Source of the DNA: Acidimicrobiia bacterium
Lineage (GTDB): Bacteria > Actinomycetota > Acidimicrobiia > Spongiisociales > ZC4RG35
Reading direction: 5' to 3'
DNA length: 64,000 nt
Assembly: GCA_965220995.1 (NCBI GenBank)
Contig: OZ244856.1
Span: 514,928-578,927, forward strand
Shown: positions 23,711 to 60,077 of the stretch, in pieces
Position numbering within the stretch: the first letter of the stretch is position 1
Layout of the letters: the number at the start of each line of letters is the position of its first letter
Translations under genes and position numbers: made by a program
The notes under the pieces: generated by a model
The model's input: only the letters and a program-made list of their open reading frames with translations
Databases searched by the model: none
What the model was told of the DNA's origin: nothing

Positions 23711-24632
23711 CTATTTCTGATCGGGCGCCATGGCCTCGACCGCCGCCTCGATACCCTCCTCGCCGACCGGCACCGGGCGTATCACCAATTCGTCGAGGCC
23801 GCCGACCCGGTAGGAGTCCAGGGCCGCCCGACATTGGGAGGGCGTACCCGAGATTCCCAGACGCTCTGCCGCGGCTCCCGGATCGTCAGGGTCAAGTCCC
23901 TGCTGCACAGCATGCCTTCGATAGGCCGGCAGTCGCAGGTATTGGCCCAGATCGGCGGCCAAGGCCTGTTTGGCCGCCTTCGGGTCCGATGAAACCGCCA
24001 CCCGCACGTAGGCGGCGATGTGGAAAAAAGAAGCTCCCCGAGAGAACCCTCGCAGCCATTGGGCGGTGGACCGCAGATGGGAGGCGGTGCACCAATTGAG
24101 CAACACCCCGTCGGCCTCCGCAACAGCCAACTGCAACATGCGCGGACCCATGGCGCCCACCACCGTCCAGATCGGACCGCCGGCCAGAAGGCCCAACCGG
24201 GCGCCTTCCACCGAGAACACCTCGCCCCGATGGGTGACCCTCCGGCCGTGGCGAAGGCCGTTGACGATCTTGAGATAATCGGAAACGGCCGCAAGCGGCG
24301 AGGAAAGATCGAACCCGAAGTAGCGACGGGCGAGCACCGGATGCCCCGAACCGATTCCCAGCACCATCCGACCCGGCCCGGCCGCGGCCGCCACCGAAGC
24401 GGCCCCCATGGCCGCCGCCATCGGAGGGCGAACATAGACCGGCGCCACCCCCGTGGCCAGTCGGATCCGGGCGGTGGCTGACGCCCAGGCCGCCAGGGTG
24501 GAGAACGCCTCCCGGGCCACCGATTCGTTGGTCCAGGCCGCGTGATACCCGAGTTGTTCGGCCCTCACCACCACCTCGGTGAGCCGCTGGTGGGAAAGGC
24601 GCGGGTCGACCAGGGAGACGCCGGTCTCCATC
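23711..24632 (-). CDS. LLM-class (luciferase-like) flavin/F420-dependent oxidoreductase
   Basis: TIM-barrel LLM motifs, including METGVSLVDPRLSHQRLTEVV. ORF-track start trimmed to METGVS; the upstream extension is Ser/Arg low-complexity. Confidence 0.75.
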
Positions 24633-28325: not shown

Positions 28326-28564
28326 TGGGAACACGAACACACATCTCCAAGTGGGGTTCCAGTCTGGCGGTCCGAATCCCCAAGGCGATAGCAGACCAAT
28401 GGGGTGTGCGAGAAGGCTCACCAATTGAGATAGCGCCTCGCGGAGACCGAATCGTTCTGCGAAGAACCCCTAACGATCTGGACCGCATGTTGGAACTGAT
28501 GACCGAAGACAACTTCCATGCCGACCAGGACTTCGGCCCTCCTCAAGGGGTCGAAGCCTGGTAG
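28325..28564 (+). CDS. AbrB/MazE-family (SpoVT-AbrB fold) antitoxin-like small protein; no toxin partner found
   Basis: MGTRTHISKWGSSLAVRIPKAIADQWGVREGSPIEIAPRGDRIVLRR is a typical MazE/AbrB swapped-hairpin domain. The start overlaps the bioY stop (TAATG). GGAGG RBS. Confidence 0.7.
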   Translation: MGTRTHISKWGSSLAVRIPKAIADQWGVREGSPIEIAPRGDRIVLRRTPNDLDRMLELMTEDNFHADQDFGPPQGVEAW

Positions 28565-28611: not shown

Positions 28612-28892
28612 AGAGCCTGCGCGATGGATTATTGGGGAAGGTCGCGAAAAACAGGGTGGCCGAGTGCTTGACTTTGTCTCCCGGGTGACACATAGTGATA
28701 GGAGTCAAGCACCTCCCGGTCTGTTCCGACGTCGACCAGACCGGCCGCAGGGACCATATTGTCGGGAAAGCGAATCCCGTTCTGCGTGACGGTTTCGCGT
28801 CCCGACCCCAGGAAAGGTGGTGGCGGGGGAGGGTCCCTCGGGACAGAAATTTTCGGGGCGTTTTCGCGAGACAGTGTTTGATTTCACAAGTT
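28612..28892. repeat. Interspersed repeat, copy A (~281 bp), near-identical to 59702-59985; terminal inverted repeats CGCGAAAAACAG, internal hairpins and a sigma70-like promoter
   Basis: By-eye alignment to copy B gives ~85-90% identity, with indels that break any reading frame. TIR-L gtcgcgaaaaacagg and TIR-R cgttttcgcgag. 10-bp stem gtgcttgact...agtcaagcac encloses TTGACT-17nt-CATAGT. Second hairpin ccggtctg...cagaccgg. Confidence 0.8.
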
Positions 28893-28986
28893 CTCTTTGC
28901 CTCCCAACCCGCTATCTCTCCAAAGCTCATCTGCCACTGACACAAGAGTCAGCCCCGGCCTCTCTGGGATCGGGAGGTTCTCAGAC

Positions 28987-30563: not shown

Positions 30564-30643
30564 GGTTCAACCCTCGATCGGGCAAAGCGGCCGGGGGTCG
30601 GCCCGCCCACAGGGGAGGCCGACCCCCGACTGCACAGTGTTTC

Positions 30644-32080
30644 TCAGGAGAGCTTGTAGCAAGCCTCCTCGAATACGTAATCGGCCGCGATCGGATGGGT
30701 GTAGGCCCGCTCGATCACCCGGATGCCGGTGGGAGAGGTACCGGCCGCCAGAGCCTCCGGATCGGGACGATTGATCCAGATCTGGCGCTGGAGACGCTCG
30801 TTGGCGCTCCCGACATAGCTCTCGCTGGGAGCGAGGCCGCGGAAGTCGATCTCCTCGATGCTCTTGGCCGCCGCCAGGACTCCGCCCTGGGTCAGATCGC
30901 CGTTCTCATAGGCGATATTCAGAGCCTCATGAAGGATCATGGCCTCGACGAATCCCTCCACCACGTAGTCGATGAGGGGAACCTCCGGGGCATATGTGGC
31001 CATCAGTTCCCTGAGGAACTCCGTACCGGGGTTGTCCTCGATGATCGGCGAGAAGTAGATGGTCGTGTAGAAGTCGCGGGCGATGGCGTCCTTGATGGGG
31101 GAATCGGGCGCCACCAAGGCCTGGCTCCACACCGGAGCAGCCCCCGACCAGCGGGCCTCAAAGCCCTGGGAGATGGCCGCACCGTAAACCTCGGTGAGGG
31201 TGGCGGCGTTGGCCGTGACCCACACTATGTCGGCGCCGCTCTGGGCAATGGCATTGCCGATCGGAGCATTGTCCTGTCCGGGAATCACCGCCCCCGAACC
31301 GTCGTACACCACATCGATGCCCAGGGTTTGGGCCGCGATCTTGGCGCCTTCGGCCGAGTCCAGTCCGTAGTCACCGGGGAAGGAGGCGACCGCCAGGGTG
31401 GGACTTGCCACACCGTCGGCCACCGCCAGATCGTGCAGGTAACCGATCATGTTCATTGCCTCTATGCAGTAAGGCGTTCCATGGGAGAGGAGGTTGGCGT
31501 TCAACGCCGGGTCCGACCAGCCCGAGTACCAGGTGAGGGGAATGGCCAGGATGCCATCCTCTTCCAGGTTCTCCCGGATGGCCACGGTGTGCGGCGACCC
31601 GGTGGAATGGCCGAAGGCCACCACCTCGTCCTTCAATTCCTCGTAGAACTGAACATGATTGTCCACCGAATAGACGGTGTCCCGGTACTCCAACTCCACG
31701 GTCAACCCGTGGATACCGCCATGGGCGTTCACGTCCGCCCAATAAGCGTTGGCGCCGGCCACCACCAATCCCACCAGACCTCCGAAAGCGCCGGTCAGAT
31801 CGGAGAGCATTCCCACCTTGATGACGCCGGCATCGAGATCAACCCCGATGTCGGTGGCGACCATCATGTCCATGGGCTCATCCTCTTCCATCGGCTCCTC
31901 TTCCTCCATGGGCTCCTCTTCGGGAGCGGCCGTGGTGGCAGGAGCCGCCGTGGTGGTGGGAGCCGCCGTGGTGGTGGGAGCCGCCGTGGTGGCGGGTTCC
32001 GCGTCGTCGTCTCCGCCGCAGGAGGCTGCGATCAGGGCCACTGCCATGACCATGGCCAACCATTTGAATTTACTCTTCAT
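30644..32080 (-). CDS. Branched-chain amino-acid-type ABC substrate-binding lipoprotein (Thr/Ala/Pro and acidic linker)
   Basis: Lipobox LIAASCGG. ATTAAPTTTAAP and EEEPMEEEEPMEED low-complexity. Type-I periplasmic binding fold. Confidence 0.8.
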   Translation of the reverse strand: MKSKFKWLAMVMAVALIAASCGGDDDAEPATTAAPTTTAAPTTTAAPATTAAPEEEPMEEEEPMEEDEPMDMMVATDIGVDLDAGVIKVGMLSDLTGAFGGLVGLVVAGANAYWADVNAHGGIHGLTVELEYRDTVYSVDNHVQFYEELKDEVVAFGHSTGSPHTVAIRENLEEDGILAIPLTWYSGWSDPALNANLLSHGTPYCIEAMNMIGYLHDLAVADGVASPTLAVASFPGDYGLDSAEGAKIAAQTLGIDVVYDGSGAVIPGQDNAPIGNAIAQSGADIVWVTANAATLTEVYGAAISQGFEARWSGAAPVWSQALVAPDSPIKDAIARDFYTTIYFSPIIEDNPGTEFLRELMATYAPEVPLIDYVVEGFVEAMILHEALNIAYENGDLTQGGVLAAAKSIEEIDFRGLAPSESYVGSANERLQRQIWINRPDPEALAAGTSPTGIRVIERAYTHPIAADYVFEEACYKLS

Positions 32081-33419: not shown

Positions 33420-34379
33420 TCATACCCGCCTGATCTCCTCGGTGCCGAAAATGCCGTACGGCCTGACGAACAAGACTCCCACCATCAACAGATACGGCAC
33501 GATCCCCGAAAACCCGGTTCCGAACCAGGGATGGTTGAGATAACTGCCCGCCAGAGACTCGGCCACCCCCACGGACAGCCCCCCGATCACCGCCCCCACC
33601 ACCGAGTCCAACCCTCCCAGGATGATGGCCGGAAAGGCGCGGAACACCAGCAACGCGGTGTCCGAATAGACCCCGACCCGCCGGGGATACACCGAACCGA
33701 AGATACCCCCCACCGTGGCCAGCACCGCCCCGATCGCCCAGGCAATCGCGAAAATCGCCCCTACCCTGATCCCCTGGGCGCGGGCCGCCTCCTGGTCGAA
33801 AGCCGTGGCCCGCATGGCTATCCCCGTGCGGGTTCGGAAAAAAGCGGCCACCATCAGCACCAGGGCCACCGCCACCAGAAACTGGGCGATCTCGGTGTGG
33901 GCGATGATCACGAATCCCAGATCGGCCACCGCGTCTCCCCAGGGATCGGCCATGGAACGAGGATCGGGGCCGATGTAGTCGGTGACGATGGTCATAAGAA
34001 TCACGTTCAACCCCAGGGTGACGATGGCCACCGAGAACAGGTCCTCTCCCACCATGGGACGCAGGAAGACTCGTTCCAGCACCATCCCCATCGCGGCCGA
34101 CAGCAGCAGGGCGGCCAGCACCGAGATCCCCCACCCCAAGAGCGGCGGCAGGTCCAGGAAACGACCCGGGAAATTGAGTTCCACCGCCACCCCGGCAGTG
34201 ATGAACGCCCCCACGGTGGCCAGGGCGCCGTGGGCGAAGTTCACCACCTGCGTGGCCTTGAATATGATCACAAACCCCATCGCCAACAGGGCATATATGG
34301 TGCCCAGGGACAGTCCGCTGACGATGGCCCCCGCCAGTTGGCTGTGGTCGGCCTGGGCAACTATCGCCGGTAGATCCAC
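33420..34379 (-). CDS. livH: Branched-chain amino acid ABC transporter permease LivH
   Basis: 319-aa polytopic permease. GTIYALLAMGFVIIFKAT...FAHGAL motif region. Confidence 0.85.
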   Translation of the reverse strand: MDLPAIVAQADHSQLAGAIVSGLSLGTIYALLAMGFVIIFKATQVVNFAHGALATVGAFITAGVAVELNFPGRFLDLPPLLGWGISVLAALLLSAAMGMVLERVFLRPMVGEDLFSVAIVTLGLNVILMTIVTDYIGPDPRSMADPWGDAVADLGFVIIAHTEIAQFLVAVALVLMVAAFFRTRTGIAMRATAFDQEAARAQGIRVGAIFAIAWAIGAVLATVGGIFGSVYPRRVGVYSDTALLVFRAFPAIILGGLDSVVGAVIGGLSVGVAESLAGSYLNHPWFGTGFSGIVPYLLMVGVLFVRPYGIFGTEEIRRV

Positions 34380-48719: not shown

Positions 48720-48947
48720 CCGCCTTTGGACAGTCTGTCTCTATCAACAAAGGCCTTTTCGCCACGACCGGGGTCAACCGCGAACAACTGGATAACCCTG
48801 AACGGATTTCCATCCAGCGCCAACCCCCGGGTGGCACACATGCTTGATCTTCTGTCGGTAGAAGGGGATTTATGATTAGGTTTGGTTTGTCAACTTGGCG
48901 TTATATGGTCATGTTTTGTCACACCCGTGGGGGTATAATGATCGGGT

Positions 48948-50201
48948 ATGAACGAAGTGGCAACCGGAGCGAACGGACGGGTCGTGGACCAACGGACGGG
49001 CAACCAGGTACGGGTAGTGCTGCCGTCGGTTCCGGTGCGGGAAGCGTCGTTGGCCGGACTGCAGGAGCAGATGCGGTCGGCCAGCCGAGCCAAAGCCCAG
49101 GCCGAAGCGATCCGCGCGCGGGCCGCCGCCGAGTACAGCCGACGCCTGGGTGACAAAGCCACCGAAAAAGAACTCCGGAAACAATCCCGCCAATCAGCCC
49201 GCGGTACACGAACCGAAGTGAAAGTCGCCACCCAACTCAAAGACCTGCCCAACACCAAAAATGCATTCGAGACAGGCGAAATCACCTTCGGGCATGCCAA
49301 GGTAATCGCCGCCACAGCCGAACGGGCGAAAAACATTGACGAGCAGGAACTGGTAGGCCGGGCCAAGGTGGAACCGGTGGACGTGTTTTCTCGCACCGCC
49401 CGCCGTCACGAACAACAACGTTCCCACGATGACGGGATAGGAATGTTAGAAGCCCAAAAACGGGCCCGGCGGGCGTGGATCAAAACCGACCGGGACGATG
49501 GCATGACCGTCCTCTACGCCCGGTTCGATCCGATAACCGGCGCCCGGATCAGAAACGCCCTATCCCACCGCACCGACCAACTATGGCGAGAAGAACACCC
49601 CAACCATCGTCCCTCCACCGAACAACGCCTGGCCGACGCCGTGGCTGATCTGATCTGCCGACCCGACAGAACCCAAGAGAAGAAGGGCAAACCAGGATGG
49701 GCCGGGGCCACGCTGTTTATCACTGCCAACTACGACGTGGTAACCCAAAAGCTACAGGACGCCCAACTGGCTGACGGGACTCCCATACCCGTGGAAACCA
49801 TAAAAGAGTTGGCGTGTGAGGCGGAGATCGTTCCCGCCTTCTTCGACAGCCGTTCCCAGCCGCTGTGGGTGGGAACGAGCAGCCGACTCGCCACCCGAGC
49901 ACAACGCATGGCCCTGTTCGCCCGCGACCGGGGCTGTGTGGGATGCCAAACCGATCCCGAATGGTGCCAAGCCCACCACATCATCCCCTGGCAGGAGGAC
50001 GGACCCACCAACATCGACAACCTGGTCCTGCTATGCAGCAGATGCCACCACCAAATCCACGACAACCGATGGCAAATACACCAAACCCCGGACGGCAAAC
50101 ACGTAATGCTCCCACCCCCACGCCATCGCCCGCCCCCACCGAACAACCACCCCCGCCGCAGGAGACGACGGCGAAAACTCACCACTCAACTACGCCGGTA
50201 A
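48948..50201 (+). CDS. DUF222 + HNH endonuclease protein (REP13E12-like family)
   Basis: C-terminal HNH motif CVGCQTDPEWCQAHHIIPW...NLVLLCSRCHHQIH preceded by a DUF222-like region. The upstream region is AT-rich, with TATAAT (48934-48939) 8 nt before the ATG, suggesting a leaderless transcript. Confidence 0.8.
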   Translation: MNEVATGANGRVVDQRTGNQVRVVLPSVPVREASLAGLQEQMRSASRAKAQAEAIRARAAAEYSRRLGDKATEKELRKQSRQSARGTRTEVKVATQLKDLPNTKNAFETGEITFGHAKVIAATAERAKNIDEQELVGRAKVEPVDVFSRTARRHEQQRSHDDGIGMLEAQKRARRAWIKTDRDDGMTVLYARFDPITGARIRNALSHRTDQLWREEHPNHRPSTEQRLADAVADLICRPDRTQEKKGKPGWAGATLFITANYDVVTQKLQDAQLADGTPIPVETIKELACEAEIVPAFFDSRSQPLWVGTSSRLATRAQRMALFARDRGCVGCQTDPEWCQAHHIIPWQEDGPTNIDNLVLLCSRCHHQIHDNRWQIHQTPDGKHVMLPPPRHRPPPPNNHPRRRRRRRKLTTQLRR

Positions 50202-50360
50202 AACCCGCGAAACAAACCCGCCTCCCAGGGTTGACCACAGCCCCTCGGGTCGGCCACACTGAACAAGCTACTGAAACCAACCCCCGGGAAACGAGCGCTC
50301 AACCCCGGGCCGCAACAACCCAAACAACGCGACACCCACACACTGCGATCAAACGCGGAA

Positions 50361-50429
50361 AAGTCGCGAAAACCCACGGACAGGCGGTGGCGGGGGAGGG
50401 CAACCCGAAAGGGGAGAAATTCGCGACTT
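50361..50429. repeat. Mini-copy (~70 bp) of the repeat family: perfect 10-bp terminal inverted repeats aagtcgcgaa / ttcgcgactt around the conserved GGTGGCGGGGGAGGG core
   Basis: Shares TIR sequence (GTCGCGAAAAC) and core (ggtggcgggggaggg...gaaat) with copies A and B. Lies in the gap between the HNH gene and the dapA-like gene. Confidence 0.6.
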
Positions 50430-50542
50430 TTGCGACTCTCTGGCGAGAACCTACTAAGACTCATTATGGATTCGGCGACCCACAGCCCCAGTCGCCGGCT
50501 CCGGAACATTGCCGTGCTTCCGCCGGTTATCATCGAATCCTG

Positions 50543-51403
50543 ATGAAGTCACCGCCAAGGGCCATGCCCGCCATCATTACCCCCTTCAACGAACACCAGG
50601 AACTCGATCTCGGCGCCCATCGCCACAACCTTTCCTTACTGGGCTCAATGGGCTATGAAGGTTTCGTCCTGGGTGGATCCACCGGGGAAGGACCCCTGTT
50701 GGAACCCGGGGAACGGCTGCGCCTCACTGCCGCCGCCCGGGATGGCATGGGAGACGGCACATTTCTGTTGTGCGGCATCAACGCCGAGACCAACCGGGCC
50801 GCAACACGGCAGATCGCCGAAGCCCACCAGGGGGGAGCGGATGCCGTGCTGGTCCTCACCCCCACCACCATGTCTCGCAACCGCACCAACTTTCAGAGCG
50901 CCTTTTTCGAGGCAGTGGCGGATGAATCGCCCCTTCCGGTGTTTCTCTACTCGGTTCCGATAGTGACCGCCTATTCGCTGCCGCTTGAAACGGTCTGGGA
51001 ACTGGCCCAACACCCCAATGTGGCGGGCATGAAGGATTCCAGCGGGGACGCCACCCGGCTGCAGCGGATGCTGGCGGGCCTGCCCGATGATTTTGCCCTC
51101 TACAACGGTTCTGCTCATTCTGTGAACCTGGCCCTAGCCGCCGGGGCTCACGGTGTGATCCTGGCAGCCGCCAACTACCTGCCGAGGCTGGGCTTGGAAT
51201 TGGTAGCGGCTGCCCTGGAAAGCCCCCCCGGGGACATGAAACGCCAACACCGTCTGAGCGCCGGCAACGATGGTGTGGCCCGGCACGGGATTCCGGGAGT
51301 GAAAGCGGCCGCCGAACTGGTGGGACTCCGGGCGGGGCGCTGTCGGGCTCCGTTGCTGGCGGTGGACGAAGAGACTCAGGCCGGGTTCGCCCCCCTGCTT
51401 TAG
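50543..51403 (+). CDS. Dihydrodipicolinate synthase-family (DapA-like) lyase
   Basis: IITPFNE...GFVLGGSTGE...DAVLVLTP...YSVP blocks of the DapA/NAL family. The ORF-track N-terminal 225 aa is a spurious overlap with the HNH gene. Confidence 0.75.
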   Translation: MKSPPRAMPAIITPFNEHQELDLGAHRHNLSLLGSMGYEGFVLGGSTGEGPLLEPGERLRLTAAARDGMGDGTFLLCGINAETNRAATRQIAEAHQGGADAVLVLTPTTMSRNRTNFQSAFFEAVADESPLPVFLYSVPIVTAYSLPLETVWELAQHPNVAGMKDSSGDATRLQRMLAGLPDDFALYNGSAHSVNLALAAGAHGVILAAANYLPRLGLELVAAALESPPGDMKRQHRLSAGNDGVARHGIPGVKAAAELVGLRAGRCRAPLLAVDEETQAGFAPLL

Positions 51404-52161
51404 ACCGTCCCGCCGGTGTAGGCGGATATCACCGCTTCGGGGGCGCCCTGCATGCGAATCTTTCCCCGGTCGAGCCACAGAACACGGGAGGCCAGATCCC
51501 CGATCAACTCCATGTCGTGGGAAACCAAGATGGTGGCCGCCCCCTGTTCCATCACTTTCCGCACCCGCTGCCGGGATGTCTCCTGAAAACTCTGGTCGCC
51601 GACACTGAGGATTTCATCAACCAGCAGCACGTCGGGTTGGATATCGGTGACGATGGAAAAACCCAGCCGAGCGAGCATCCCCGAGGAAAAGGCTCGCACG
51701 GCAACGTCCGAGAACTCCGACAACCCCGCCCATTCGATGATCTCCTCGGCCCGTTGTTCCATTTCCCGGGGGGAGCGGCCCAGGATCGCCCCATACAGAA
51801 TCACGTTTTCCGTGGCGGTCAACTCCACATTGAATCCCGCTCCCAGTTCGATGAGCGGCGCCACCAGTCCTCTCACCACCACCCGACCCCGGGTGGGGGG
51901 CAACACCCGGGCCATGATCTTCATGAGGGTGGACTTCCCCGCCCCATTGTCACCGATCACGCCCAGCACCTCTCCGCGATCGACCCTCAACGACACGCCA
52001 GAAACGGCTCTCAGTTGATCCACCACCATCCGCCGACGCAGAGAACGGATCACCTGCTCTTTGAAGGTGCCGGGACGGTCCCGCACCAGGGGATAGATCA
52101 AGGAGACTTCCCGGCAGTCGACCGCGGGAGAACTCAAACCAGCACCGCCAGTCGCCGCCAT
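51400..52161 (-). CDS. ABC transporter ATP-binding protein (Wzt/TagH-like exporter ATPase)
   Basis: GDNGAGKSTLMKI, LSGGQ-like FSSGMLARLGF, LLVDEILSVGD. Start chosen at MAATGG, which overlaps the permease stop. Confidence 0.8.
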   Translation of the reverse strand: MAATGGAGLSSPAVDCREVSLIYPLVRDRPGTFKEQVIRSLRRRMVVDQLRAVSGVSLRVDRGEVLGVIGDNGAGKSTLMKIMARVLPPTRGRVVVRGLVAPLIELGAGFNVELTATENVILYGAILGRSPREMEQRAEEIIEWAGLSEFSDVAVRAFSSGMLARLGFSIVTDIQPDVLLVDEILSVGDQSFQETSRQRVRKVMEQGAATILVSHDMELIGDLASRVLWLDRGKIRMQGAPEAVISAYTGGTV

Positions 52162-52973
52162 GACCGGGAGAAGATCCAAGCTCCTCCCAACAACGCCGCG
52201 GCGGACGTGGCCACCATCACCACCCACATCCACCCGGGGGCAAATCCACCCCCGTATATCAGTCCCCTGAACACCTCCAGATAGGAGTAGAGGGGGTTGA
52301 AATGGATCAACACCACAAACCGATCGGGAACGATGGTCACCGGATAGAAGCCGGGTGTTGCGTACATGGCGAGGGTGAGCAGAACCCCCACTATGTCGAG
52401 AACATCCCGGTAGGCCACCGCCAAGGACGCCACCATCATGCCCAAGCCCGCCACGAACATGGCCAGGAACACCAGTGGAATGGGCGCCAGCAGGGCGGTG
52501 ACGGGTATCCCGACTCCGGCCACCAACTGCACCACCAGTAGCAACAGGATGTTGATTCCGAAGTTGACCAGAGCCGCCAGGGCGGGCGCCACCGCGAACA
52601 CCTCGGCCGGAACGTACACCTTGGAAAGAATCCCGGCGGAATCGACTATCGACGACCCCGACGCCACCACTCCCTGCGAAAAAAAGGTAATGAGCATCAC
52701 ACCCGACAGCACATAGACCACATAGGGGACATCTCCGGGAATCTCAAACCGAAAAATCGTGCTGAACACCGCCCACATCACCCCCACCGTCAGAAGCGGA
52801 TTCAGAAGGGTCCACCACACCCCCAACATGGAACGCTTGTAGCGGACCGTGAGGTCCCTTTTCACCAACAGTCCCAGAAGGCCCCCATAGCGACGGAGAT
52901 TGGCGATTTCCGACGCCACCGGACGGCGGGGTTGGTCGGAGTCATAGTGAGAGACCGGCGGCGGCGCTCTCAC
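52134..52973 (-). CDS. ABC-2 type transporter permease (Wzm/TagG-like)
   Basis: 279 aa, 6 TM. ABC-2 signature region YKRSMLGVWWTLLNPLL. Confidence 0.8.
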   Translation of the reverse strand: MRAPPPVSHYDSDQPRRPVASEIANLRRYGGLLGLLVKRDLTVRYKRSMLGVWWTLLNPLLTVGVMWAVFSTIFRFEIPGDVPYVVYVLSGVMLITFFSQGVVASGSSIVDSAGILSKVYVPAEVFAVAPALAALVNFGINILLLLVVQLVAGVGIPVTALLAPIPLVFLAMFVAGLGMMVASLAVAYRDVLDIVGVLLTLAMYATPGFYPVTIVPDRFVVLIHFNPLYSYLEVFRGLIYGGGFAPGWMWVVMVATSAAALLGGAWIFSRSWRRLAVLV

Positions 52974-57986: not shown

Positions 57987-59702
57987 GGGGTGATGGCCGC
58001 CGGACATCCCCTGACGTCGGTGGCCGGGATGCAAATGCTCCTTTCGGGAGGAAACGCCTTCGATGCGGTGGTGGCCGGACTGTTCGCGGCGGCGGTGGTG
58101 GAACCGACTGCGGCCTTCTCTCTGGCGGCGGAGAGCGTGTTCATGATCTACGACTCCCGCACCGGAGACCTCCGTTCTGTGAGCGGACAGGGCGTGGCCC
58201 CCGCCAGAGCCACCGTAGACTTCTACCGGTCGGCCGGTCTCGATTCGATTCCCACCGGTCCGGGCCGAATGGCGCCTTTGTCGTTCACCGTTCCCGGCGC
58301 GGCCCACGCCGCCATCGCCCTGCTCGACCGATACGGCGCCAAGAGTCTGAGCGAGGTGCTTGAACCGGCCATCAGGTACGCGGCGCAAGGCATCCCCCAC
58401 TACCGCCCCATGCTTGATTTCCTGCGCCAAGAGGCCACCCTCGCCCAGTTCAAACTCTTTCCCCACGGCGGGTCGGAGGTCTTTTATTCCGGAGACCGGA
58501 TACCAGAGCCCGGGTCCCTGCTGGTGCAACCCGGCCTGGCCGGAACCCTCCGAGCCATGGCTTCGGCCGAGCAGGCCTGTTCGGGAGGGCGGTCGGAAGC
58601 CCTGGGAGCGGCAAGCGACGAGTTCTACCTCGGACGGATCGCCCGATTGATCGCCGATTCCTCGGCAGGTGTGGGGGGAGTATTGGACTATGAAGACCTG
58701 ACCACCTATCGATCCCGCTTCGAGACCCCGCTGTCATGCCGTTATGGGGGATACGAAATTTTTGGCCAAGGGACCTGGTCGCAGGCGGCGGTCCTGTTTC
58801 AGGCTCTGAACATCCTCCGGCATTTCGATCTCGGGGCCATGGGACACAACACCCCCGCCTACATCCATACGGTCACCGAGGCCCTGAAGCTCTCCCTGGC
58901 CGACCGTCAGGCTTACTACGGCGACCCCGGCCATGCCGAGGCGCCGGTGGAGGAACTCCTGTCAAGGGAATACGGAACCGCTCGGGCCAGTTTGATCGAC
59001 CCGGCCCGCGCCTTTCCCCAAATGCCTCCGCCGGGTGACCCCTGGACCCTCTCGCCGTCGGCGGGGCGATACATCGATCCGGTGGTCTGCGCCTCGCCCC
59101 CCAATGTCTCACCCTTGCCTGACACCGGCACCACTCATGTGGCCGCCATCGATCAGCATGGCAACCTGGCGGCCGCCACTCCCAGCGGCGGGTCCTTTGA
59201 GAAGTCGGTGTATTTCGGGGAACTCGGATGCGCTCTCAGCACCCGCATCGAGGTTTTCAATCTTTCCCCGGGCCACCCCAATGTCATCAAACCCGGCAAG
59301 AGCCCCCGGACCACTTTGGTCAACTACATAGTGGCCGAAGGGGGCGTCCCCCTGATGACCTTCGGCTGCCCCGGGGGAGATCATCAGACCCAGGCCAATC
59401 TTCAACTCATGCTGAACACCTTCATCTTCGGGATGAACCCGCAGGAAGCGGTGGAAGCGCCCCGGTTCGCCACCGACAGCACTCCGGACTCGTTCTATCC
59501 GCATCGGTACTTCCCGGGCCGACTATCCCTGGAAGCGGCCTTCCCGGATGGCACCGCGGAGGCCCTGGCCGGTCTCGGTCACCGGGTGGTCAGATCCGAA
59601 GCCTGCGGCATGGGGGCCATCATCACCCGCTCCGATCCTGTGTCCGGGGTGGTGTGCGCCGGCGCCGATCCGAGACGGCCCACCTACGCGCTGGGATGGT
59701 AA
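57987..59702 (+). CDS. Gamma-glutamyltransferase family protein (no signal peptide)
   Basis: GGT large- and small-subunit blocks. Autoprocessing Thr in DTGTTHVAAIDQHGN. Start trimmed to MAAGHPL; the ORF-track start at 57828 adds a non-signal extension. Confidence 0.8.
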   Translation, partial: GVMAAGHPLTSVAGMQMLLSGGNAFDAVVAGLFAAAVVEPTAAFSLAAESVFMIYDSRTGDLRSVSGQGVAPARATVDFYRSAGLDSIPTGPGRMAPLSFTVPGAAHAAIALLDRYGAKSLSEVLEPAIRYAAQGIPHYRPMLDFLRQEATLAQFKLFPHGGSEVFYSGDRIPEPGSLLVQPGLAGTLRAMASAEQACSGGRSEALGAASDEFYLGRIARLIADSSAGVGGVLDYEDLTTYRSRFETPLSCRYGGYEIFGQGTWSQAAVLFQALNILRHFDLGAMGHNTPAYIHTVTEALKLSLADRQAYYGDPGHAEAPVEELLSREYGTARASLIDPARAFPQMPPPGDPWTLSPSAGRYIDPVVCASPPNVSPLPDTGTTHVAAIDQHGNLAAATPSGGSFEKSVYFGELGCALSTRIEVFNLSPGHPNVIKPGKSPRTTLVNYIVAEGGVPLMTFGCPGGDHQTQANLQLMLNTFIFGMNPQEAVEAPRFATDSTPDSFYPHRYFPGRLSLEAAFPDGTAEALAGLGHRVVRSEACGMGAIITRSDPVSGVVCAGADPRRPTYALGW

Positions 59703-59985
59703 GAGCCTGCGCGGTTGGGTTTTGGGGGGGTCGCGAAAAACAGGATGGCCGATGGCTTGACTTTGTCTCCGGGGTGACACATAGTGATAGGAGTCAAGCA
59801 CCTCCCGGTCTGTTCAGACGTCGACCAGACCGGCCGCAGGGATCACAATTTTCGGGAAAGCGAAATCCTCGTTCTGCGTGGTGGATTCGCGTCCCGACCC
59901 CAGGAAAGGTGGTGGCGGGGGAGGGTCCCGCGGGGACAGGAATTTCGGGGCTGTTTTCGCGAAATAGCGTCAGATTTCACAAGTT
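59702..59985. repeat. Interspersed repeat, copy B (~284 bp), beginning at the GGT stop codon; same TIRs, promoter-like hairpin and core as copy A
   Basis: Aligns with 28612-28892 over its whole length. TIR-L gtcgcgaaaaacagg, TIR-R ctgttttcgcgaaat. TTGACT-17-CATAGT inside an 8-bp stem. Confidence 0.8.
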
Positions 59986-60077
59986 TCGCCGCCCGAACCC
60001 CTCCCTCTATACCAATCCGTAAAGCCGGTGGGCGGGGGACCGGTTGCTCCTCGGTGAATTTCTGAGGAGCGCCTGAC

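Follow-up and report, generated by a model that had tools for sequence, protein, structure and literature searches.

A close described counterpart of the locus reported here is the REP13E12 repeat of Mycobacterium tuberculosis, whose copies act as gene-conversion hotspots, hold a putative site of prophage attachment and lack a defined function (PMC13061034; PMC10589994). We analyzed a stretch of 64,000 nucleotides from an Acidimicrobiia bacterium (contig OZ244856.1, positions 514,928 to 578,927; "the window" below means this whole stretch) in which a gene for a protein with DUF222 and HNH endonuclease domains is followed by a short inverted repeat enclosing a G-rich core. What it has in common with REP13E12 is a dispersed unit, some 1.4-1.5 kb long and coding for a DUF222(+HNH) protein, that is multi-copy in relatives and associated with an attachment site for an integrating element; the differences are that the attachment sequence lies here in an adjacent, apparently structured-RNA gene and there in an open reading frame (ORF), that the integrase involved here is a P4-type tyrosine recombinase, and that the host belongs to the Acidimicrobiia. 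The integrase of phiRv1, the element whose attB is carried by REP13E12 repeats, is a serine integrase, and we know of no RNA partner described for mycobacterial REP13E12.

We favor the view, which we regard as the probable explanation, that the inverted repeat and its core make up the 3' domain of a structured small-RNA gene, one that belongs to a multi-copy family and is a divergent, full-length representative of it ("class E"). The window copy belongs to the repeat family, the helices of the family vary in a compensatory manner, the class-E copies are linked to DUF222-HNH genes, and in related genomes the core is the junction at which P4-type islands begin. In the proposed RNA a 5' segment would pair with the G-rich core (helix P1), followed by a hairpin with a palindromic apex (P2), a further hairpin (P3), the core, a short GC hairpin, a U-run and CGCGA. 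Transcription would start from TTGACC-18-CACACT, with the + strand RNA as the functional form; very tentatively, the RNA might act in trans as a "sibling" RNA, its exposed, G-rich and Shine-Dalgarno (SD)-like GGGGGAGGG serving as the interaction surface. Such genes would resemble the sibling small RNAs Qrr1-5, LhrC1-5 and the csRNAs in having several paralogues per genome, an own promoter, a hairpin-U terminator and one invariant motif, and would differ from them in their length (about 180 nt), in their 5'-3' closing helix and in a motif that is G-rich and SD-like rather than C-rich and anti-SD-like.

Distribution, architecture and folding of the family

The pattern GGANAGGNGGTGGCGGGGGAGGG, which fits all three copies in the window, was scanned over one genome per species (185,579 species). 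It returned 107 stretches, 102 of them in Acidimicrobiia metagenome-assembled genomes (MAGs), including Candidatus Spongiisocius (order Ca. Spongiisociales), and the other five being chance matches in unrelated phyla. Exact-core copies number from 4 to about 17 per Acidimicrobiia genome. Rfam gave no match at the gathering threshold for the window or for 14 related loci, and at E-values up to 10 it gave only chance-level matches (E above 1) to long copy 1, one of the two longer family members in the window. Likewise, blastn of a long copy against plasmids and of a class-E unit against phages gave no match, and a scan of viral contigs for the core returned 16 chance matches in glycine-rich coding sequence and no phage attachment site (attP). 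The family is apparently undescribed and was found only in MAGs of the Ca. Spongiisocius type; it would add an RNA family to the description of uncultivated Acidimicrobiia, whose biology is known from genomes only.

In all 102 Acidimicrobiia stretches the core lies near the 3' end of one type of unit, ~180-200 nt long. The unit opens with an A-rich or CGCG box, a promoter-like element of the form TTGAnn-17/18-nAnnnT and a short segment such as UCGCCAAGCACC; it continues with a hairpin with a palindromic apex, AGGGAACA, a second and longer hairpin, ACCA and the core, and it closes with a short GC hairpin of variable sequence followed by the TTTTCGCGA box (a U-run and CGCGA; the box is also written TTTTCGCG). 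The core itself is a near-invariant 19-nt sequence, AGGYGGUGGCGGGGGAGGG. A profile search with nhmmer recovered 17 more copies in the collected loci with cores differing by one to a few bases, and the near-invariance is therefore not owed to the pattern that was used. A TT(N)CGCG box lies at most 90 nt 3' of the core in 86 of 90 copies, and a relaxed sigma-70-like promoter test is positive for 41 of 76 non-redundant copies (8.7 in shuffles), including all three in the window. In five MAGs the sequences on both sides of the class-C copies are 92-98% identical; these are orthologous loci at which copies have been retained, and hence not fresh insertions.

The evidence that the family folds as RNA comes from covariation. 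For 40 class-A copies, RNAalifold pairs the 5' segment with the core (UCGCCA/UGGCGG, CACCU/AGGUG), forming the closing helix P1. When a five-helix structure is counted on the MAFFT alignment of this class, 92% of cells are paired as compared with 29-47% in slid controls, and double changes occur in nine pairs (shuffles: 4.0 +/- 1.2, with 0 of 500 as high). A covariance model built from class A alone recovers classes B, C and D at full length together with all three window copies. The cross-class covariance-model alignment has 85% of cells paired (33-46% in slid controls) and double changes in 28 of 37 pairs, against 17 +/- 1.7 and with 0 of 500 shuffles as high, counts that are inflated, and so carry less weight, because this alignment is fitted to the model, a bias from which the class-A counts are free. 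Every pair of P2 (7/7), of P3 and of the post-core hairpin (7/7) covaries across classes. G.U pairs exceed A.C pairs (75 vs 26 and 73 vs 36), which favors the + strand as the folding strand, the same strand that the promoter-like element would transcribe. Compensatory changes that keep helices, combined with strand asymmetry, are the marks of a structured small-RNA gene, and both were found. From these patterns of substitution we infer that the family consists of structured small-RNA genes, which would be transcribed and would function as + strand RNA.

In class A the post-core hairpin reads CCGGTGC-GGA-GCACCGG and is followed by TTTTT; its energy relative to mononucleotide shuffles is not discriminating (mean z -0.4), and covariation is the better evidence. 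The apex of P2 is always a class-specific palindromic hexamer or octamer, namely CCGATCGG (CGATCG), GGCGCC, GACGTC/CGACGTCG or GAGCTC/GAGCGCTC (in the window at 28731-28738 and 50293-50300), and these apices may form class-specific kissing-loop dimers or mark a DNA site. A G-quadruplex or Chi-like role of GGTGGTGG is possible. Two other readings were dropped: a small ORF (GGAGG, then GTG or ATG, in class A) has its frame broken by indels between copies and has no start codon in classes B-E, and a reverse-complement tRNA 3' end in the core was ruled out by inspection and with ARAGORN. Tandem arrays of ~36-nt units, each of two palindromes (GAACCTSAGGWWC and GGCGTCATATGACGCC-like), lie directly 3' of the class-A TTTTCGCGA box at L011, L022, L026, L028, L037, L040, L068 and L080 (L numbers denote collected loci), and none lies in the window; these arrays have no spacers, and a CRISPR reading of them was rejected.

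The third copy in the window and its DUF222-HNH neighbor

The initial annotation had described perfect 10-bp inverted repeats, and AAGTCGCGAA (50361-50370) and TTCGCGACTT (50420-50429) are indeed exact reverse complements; the perfect repeat is longer than first stated, 12 bp, and a repeat search finds an imperfect version with 15-nt arms that are 93% complementary at 49-nt spacing. Between the arms lies the 15-mer GGTGGCGGGGGAGGG (50386-50400), which recurs exactly at 28819-28833 and 59911-59925, so that the core is common to both long copies and the membership in their family, as annotated, is borne out. With at most two mismatches the 15-mer has six matches in the window (1.87 expected; 0 of 100 shuffles reach six), and the stretch common to the third copy and the long ones is 29 nt at 86% (repeat family D12). 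The G+C content of the window is 63%; perfect 10-bp inverted repeats with spacers of at most 60 nt are unremarkable in it (10 vs 5.8 in shuffles), 12-bp ones are rarer (2 vs 0.48 expected), and TCGCGAAAA is 12-fold over-represented (7 vs 0.57 expected). The rarity of the longer repeat and the excess of TCGCGAAAA mean that the observation stands and is not a chance effect of composition. Two additional TCGCGAAAA sites, at 33746 and 62281, look unrelated. The only other perfect inverted repeat of at least 12 bp in the window (CGGGGGTCGGCC...GGCCGACCCCCG, about 30590-30630) is a terminator-like hairpin adjoining ABC-transporter genes.

The term "mini-copy" did not survive closer comparison, since homology and architecture reach upstream at least to 50325 in the covariance model and to the promoter-like element at 50231-50260 in the class-specific alignment. 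Thirteen copies resemble the third window copy and make up the A/C-rich class E, which has a common order: CCCGCGAAACAAACC directly after the stop codon, TTGAC-17/18-CAnACT, AGCUACC, a CCCGG...GAGCUC...CCGG hairpin, CGCG-loop-CGCG, AAAACC, the core, a CCC-loop-GGG mini-hairpin and one or two TTTTCGCGA boxes. The CCCGCGAAACAAACC box is analogous to a GTCGCGAAAAAC box in the long copies, and what the initial annotation had called a truncated re-occurrence, TTGCGAC (50430-50436) followed by CTCTGGCGAGAA (50437-50449), aligns with a second, distal TTTTCGCGAG box of relatives. In the window the third copy is matched by the covariance model at 50325-50437 (23.5 bits, E 1.8e-4) and by nhmmer at 50362-50444 (E 1.8e-12), and the long copies are matched by the covariance model at 28700-28879 (39.7 bits, E 7.5e-9) and 59789-59964 (46.1 bits, E 1.3e-10). 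Order, spacing, position and shape suggest that the 5' half of class E, too, is homologous to that of the other classes.

The two arms form a bracket helix of 9-12 bp, [N]UCGCGAAAA / UUUUCGCGA[N], that is perfect in 11-12 of the 13 class-E copies and has compensatory variants (AAG..CTT, AAC..GTT, C..G, and CCCGCG..CGCGGG, in which a T-A pair in the box becomes C-G); in the nearest relative, L135, it occurs in a shifted register. This conservation, together with the compensatory variants, marks the inverted repeat as a selected helix around the core. Possibly the bracket helix competes with P3 for one strand, giving two mutually exclusive folds. The 82-nt stretch in isolation folds with z about -3 on either strand.

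The initial annotation had taken the arms and core for a minimal miniature inverted-repeat transposable element (MITE), i.e. a non-autonomous transposon consisting of two terminal inverted repeats around the core and mobilized in trans by a transposase. MITEs and REP/BIME-like repeats (Correia, RUP, ERIC) are likewise short, multi-copy, intergenic, built on inverted repeats and able to fold, and some MITE and REP families carry promoters or terminators. Such an origin would suit the perfect 12-bp repeat, the inverted TCGCGAAAA boxes that flank the long copies too, the multi-copy and intergenic character of the family, the 90.7% identity of the long copies (258 nt aligned, each copy ~295 bp) at unrelated loci, which points to recent duplication, and the presence of genuine MITEs in related genomes. 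We nevertheless consider it improbable, because the arms are not termini: the left arm is the 3' strand of P3, the right arm is the family 3' box, and both are internal to a homologous unit that extends upstream to 50325 in the covariance model and to 48894 in the comparison of paralogues. By inspection, no target-site duplication lies beside the arms (..ACGCGG / GCGACT..) or the 295-bp copies; the flanking boxes of class A are direct repeats; copies are kept at orthologous loci; and the unit carries a promoter-like element and at least four helices with compensatory variation, in which the bias of G.U over A.C points to RNA. Clustering of the ORFs within 3 kb of about 105 copies revealed no recurrent transposase, whole genomes not having been searched. 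The genuine elements just mentioned are textbook MITEs of ~120 nt with termini AGGAGGGTRCTGAAAAA ... TTTTTCAGCACCCTCCT, inserted between the -10 box and the RNA start of three class-A promoters (L017, L035, L103).

The third copy is associated with the DUF222-HNH gene. The annotation of this neighbor as REP13E12-type was correct, both in its Pfam domains (Table 1) and in its belonging to a dispersed ~1.5-kb unit that is multi-copy in relatives. By blastn, 48894-50419 of the window matches 5074-6576 of L105 at 73%, and two paralogous units in one chromosome (L105 5092-6606 and L010 2121-3661) are about 70% identical; the unit opens about 33 nt before the HNH start and closes at the TTTTCGCGA box, and there are three such 1.5-kb paralogous units in OY762464.1 and one copy in the window. 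Class-E copies close this 1.5-kb unit on the right, the DUF222-HNH gene making up the rest of it. A TGTCACAC box lies between -35 and -10, in the same layout, upstream of seven of the seven HNH genes examined (window, L105, L010, L027, L079, L031, L097), and it also occurs in class A and B RNA promoters; to judge from the position of the -10 box, the HNH mRNAs would be nearly leaderless.

The HNH protein has 526 homologues, many genomes having several copies and one 2.56-Mb contig at least seven. Each of the eight homologues in the collected loci is followed on its own strand, at a distance of 180-310 nt, by a family copy. Those loci had been chosen through the core; the independent sample is a set of seven homologues picked by protein similarity alone, whose contigs were examined, and in it five homologues (50-84% identity) are accompanied by the RNA, three of them with variant cores. 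The adjacency to the DUF222-HNH gene is a conserved linkage and not a coincidence. Homologues at 27-42% identity are without the RNA, and a metagenome scan with the HNH protein gave four distant homologues, none with the RNA. The neighborhoods of the HNH-RNA units differ, being tig-malic enzyme at L128 and L135 and monooxygenase-dapA-like in the window. At L027 (about 740-940) a tRNA gene precedes the HNH-RNA unit by about 200 nt. At L130 (2701-3266) a 50%-identical HNH homologue without the RNA lies upstream of an orthologue of the ABC-transporter gene at 51400-52233 of the window, and HNH genes may be long resident in this ABC-transporter gene neighborhood.

Could the linkage mean that the copy is a DNA-level target? 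On that account the DUF222-HNH protein would recognize the core and/or the TCGCGA boxes, and the unit would spread by break repair or gene conversion. A family copy immediately 3' of the HNH gene (8/8 collected loci and 5/7 sampled homologues), a right boundary of the unit that coincides with the family 3' box, HNH-RNA units at different loci in different genomes and the TGTCACAC box common to HNH and RNA promoters, which could be a left homology arm, are all in keeping with homing, as is the position of the unit at L031, immediately behind another family copy whose core is a variant one. REP13E12 loci are, moreover, gene-conversion hotspots in M. tuberculosis (PMC13061034). Speaking against it, no empty and occupied pair was found for the HNH unit, the paralogous units are old (about 70% identity), and the HNH-linked copies are all of one divergent class and not converted class A-D copies. 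We judge a homing site unlikely, and note that it is compatible with the copy being an RNA gene.

A structured RNA beside an HNH-nuclease gene, at the end of a repeated unit, also recalls HEARO/IscB omega-RNA and the right-end RNA of TnpB. The differences are several: there is no Rfam HEARO match and no RuvC domain, the RNA lies downstream with its own promoter-like element, most copies of the family are free-standing, and a guide-like variable segment was not seen. The likeness of the HNH domain to the IscB/group II intron type is weak and far below family thresholds: the NCBIfam guided_IscB model, whose cut-off is 175, gives 35.7 bits and covers only HNH residues 319-377, IscB matches in the PDB have E 0.04-0.4, and a Foldseek search of the PDB with an AF2 (AlphaFold2) model of the protein (pLDDT 70, pTM 0.46) gave no match below E 0.7. 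That the protein and the class-E RNA are a functional pair, for instance in RNA-dependent (guided, templated or scaffolded) homing onto the core of paralogous RNA genes, is a speculative idea to which we give little credence. If it were true, the pair would provide the first mechanism for REP13E12-type elements, unexplained since 1999, and would represent, beside IscB and TnpB and distinct from both, a new class of mobile elements that combine an HNH nuclease with an RNA. The tie of REP13E12-like DUF222-HNH genes to a specific RNA gene is a testable lead, whether to a homing target or to an RNA partner.

Since the copy lies between two same-strand genes, 90 nt upstream of a DHDPS-family start, and has a stable stem and then a T run, it might also be the 3' untranslated region or terminator of the HNH gene, or the 5' leader of the DHDPS-family gene. 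We hold this to be very improbable: the terminator scan is empty at the site, the gene that follows is a different one in each relative and often convergent, and the identical core is also present at sites remote from any HNH or dapA-like gene.

Several observations weigh against the third copy being a full-length RNA gene or against an RNA-only model of the family. The energies of single-sequence folding are unremarkable (z -0.8 to -1.8), being z -0.8 for a long copy and, at z -1.5, only marginally better than shuffles for the full-length class-E RNA. Class E resembles the other classes in sequence over its last 85-113 nt only; its P1 helix has just 6 bp, some of them wobbles, and in L128 this pairing shows no compensation. 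The class-E promoter is weak (8/12) and is missed by the stricter promoter scan, which picks up TTGACT-17-CATAGT in long copy 1, and the terminator scan of the + strand over 50100-50560 gave no canonical intrinsic terminator. Two of the seven independently sampled HNH homologues lack the RNA, so the linkage is not obligatory. Finally, CGCGA is conserved beyond the U-run, which an RNA-only model does not account for, and a copy of the box lies upstream of the promoter, direct in class A and inverted in classes B-E, the inverted box being likewise without explanation in such a model.

The core as an integration site in related genomes

Tyrosine-integrase islands of the P4 type enter tRNA and tmRNA genes, and the family offers a close parallel. 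After the core, CACAtTGTGGrGGTTTCGTAG takes the place of the native hairpin and box in 11 related loci. At the four loci with enough sequence available (L025, L102, L090 and L030, two of which share a chromosome), a gene for a 385-aa P4-type tyrosine integrase (domains Arm-DNA-bind_3, Phage_int_M and Phage_integrase) begins some 170 nt past the core on its strand, with cargo such as AbiEii farther on. One orthologous locus is empty in L001 and L093 and occupied in L025; the three have a common upstream flank and diverge exactly after GGGGGAGGG; the occupied sites L090 and L102 part ways with empty sites at exactly the same point. This divergence identifies the core as the bacterial attachment site (attB) in the family. 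A stable-RNA-gene attB is recognized by an adjacent integrase and by an identity between empty and occupied sites that ends inside the gene, and both were observed in the relatives. The islands entered class B, D and E copies.

As at tRNA and tmRNA attB sites, the integrase adjoins the 3' part of the RNA gene, the junction is inside the gene, the island brings a replacement 3' segment, and the cargo includes defense genes (AbiEii). The target here differs in being neither tRNA nor tmRNA and in being a paralogous family with 4-17 sites per genome, and the island does not regenerate the native tail after the core. Entry would proceed as at tRNA/tmRNA genes, with recombination within the core swapping the native 3' tail. 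A non-tRNA family of RNA genes can, it appears, be a multi-site landing pad for tyrosine-integrase defense islands. The suggestion of the initial annotation that the feature is an integration site therefore holds for the family, in which empty and occupied sites identify the core as attB in relatives, and does not hold for the window as it stands, which contains no integrase and no island junction.

These islands raise the question of whether the third copy might be an attR-type remnant. On that reading an integrated element, with the HNH gene as its cargo, would have left behind at its distal end a partial duplicate of the 3' part of an RNA gene. A true 3'-only copy exists in L043 (7936-7999; core, hairpin and box), with unrelated sequence upstream and similarity lost 7 nt upstream of the core; it looks like the distal (attR) repeat of an island, and since the locus pieces are 8 kb long it is tied to no particular island. 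Islands do integrate at the core, and the similarity of the window copy to the general family profile begins, in nhmmer, only at 50362. The window copy is nonetheless unlike that of L043 in what lies upstream of its core, where P3-like and P2-like hairpins and a promoter-like element are conserved in 13 class-E copies; in addition, the window has no integrase, and the repeated unit, just 1.5 kb long, has its left end at the HNH promoter. There is, in our estimate, only a slim chance that the copy is such a remnant, and a full-length class-E RNA gene remains the reading that we prefer.

Feature coordinates and other features of the window

The features of the HNH-RNA unit and of the two long copies are collected in Table 1.

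Table 1. Features of the repeat family and of the HNH-RNA unit, in window coordinates
Feature	Position	Strand	Details
Long copy 1, class D	28612-28906	+	between MazE/AbrB-type gene and convergent ABC ATPase gene
Long copy 1, upstream box	28641-28652	+	
Long copy 1, promoter-like element	28668-28696	+	TTGACT-17-CATAGT
Long copy 1, predicted RNA	28700-28879	+	
Long copy 1, core	28811-28833	+	
Long copy 1, 3' box	28858-28870	+	
Repeated REP13E12-like unit	48894-50453	+	HNH promoter, DUF222-HNH gene and class-E RNA gene; about 1.5 kb
HNH promoter-like region	48917-48939	+	TGTCACAC box 48917-48924; TATAAT 48934-48939, 8 nt before ATG
DUF222 + HNH endonuclease gene	48948-50201	+	417 aa; Pfam DUF222 1e-21, HNH 1.7e-9
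Upstream A-rich CGCGAAA box CCCGCGAAACAAACC	50203-50219	+	directly 3' of HNH stop; conserved in class-E alignment A4
Class-E promoter-like element	50231-50260	+	TTGACC-18-CACACT; TTGA invariant in A4; relaxed sigma-70 scan 8/12
Predicted class-E small RNA	50266-50437	+	putative 5' end about 6-8 nt after -10 box; 3' end uncertain
P2-like hairpin CCCGGG...CCCGGG	50282-50310	+	palindromic apex GAGCGCTC 50293-50300; class-E alignment
P3-like hairpin	50328-50368	+	CGCGAC 50328-50333 / GUCGCG 50363-50368, inner CUGCG/CGCGG; minimum-free-energy fold of 50266-50440
Left arm AAAAGTCGCGAA	50359-50370	+	overlaps P3 3' strand
Family core GGACAGGCGGTGGCGGGGGAGGG	50378-50400	+	in relatives, attB crossover region for integrase islands
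Mini-hairpin CCC-GAAA-GGG	50404-50413	+	after core; centroid fold
Right arm TTCGCGACTTTT	50420-50431	+	family 3' TTTTCGCGA box
Degenerate second 3' box	50430-50449	+	TTGCGAC + CTCTGGCGAGAA; aligns with distal TTTTCGCGAG box of L027, L105, L076
Long copy 2, class D	59702-59997	+	between gamma-glutamyltranspeptidase gene and convergent acyl-carrier-protein/FabG/FabH cluster
Long copy 2, predicted RNA	59789-59964	+	
Long copy 2, core	59903-59925	+	
Long copy 2, 3' box	59954-59962	+	

The MazE/AbrB-type gene next to long copy 1 is antitoxin-like (28340-28564, + strand) and stops 48 nt upstream of the copy. The window has one tRNA gene, tRNA-Arg(CCG), at 24378-24459 on the - strand. Tandem repeats with an 18-nt period (GTGGTGGTxGGxGCxxCx) lie at 2383-2522 and 31922-32011; the two are similar and are probably coding repeats. 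Between 15590 and 18978 there are several ~90-nt direct repeats (D3, D5, D7) of 60-79% identity that end in ...CTCCTGCCA and resemble repeated protein modules.

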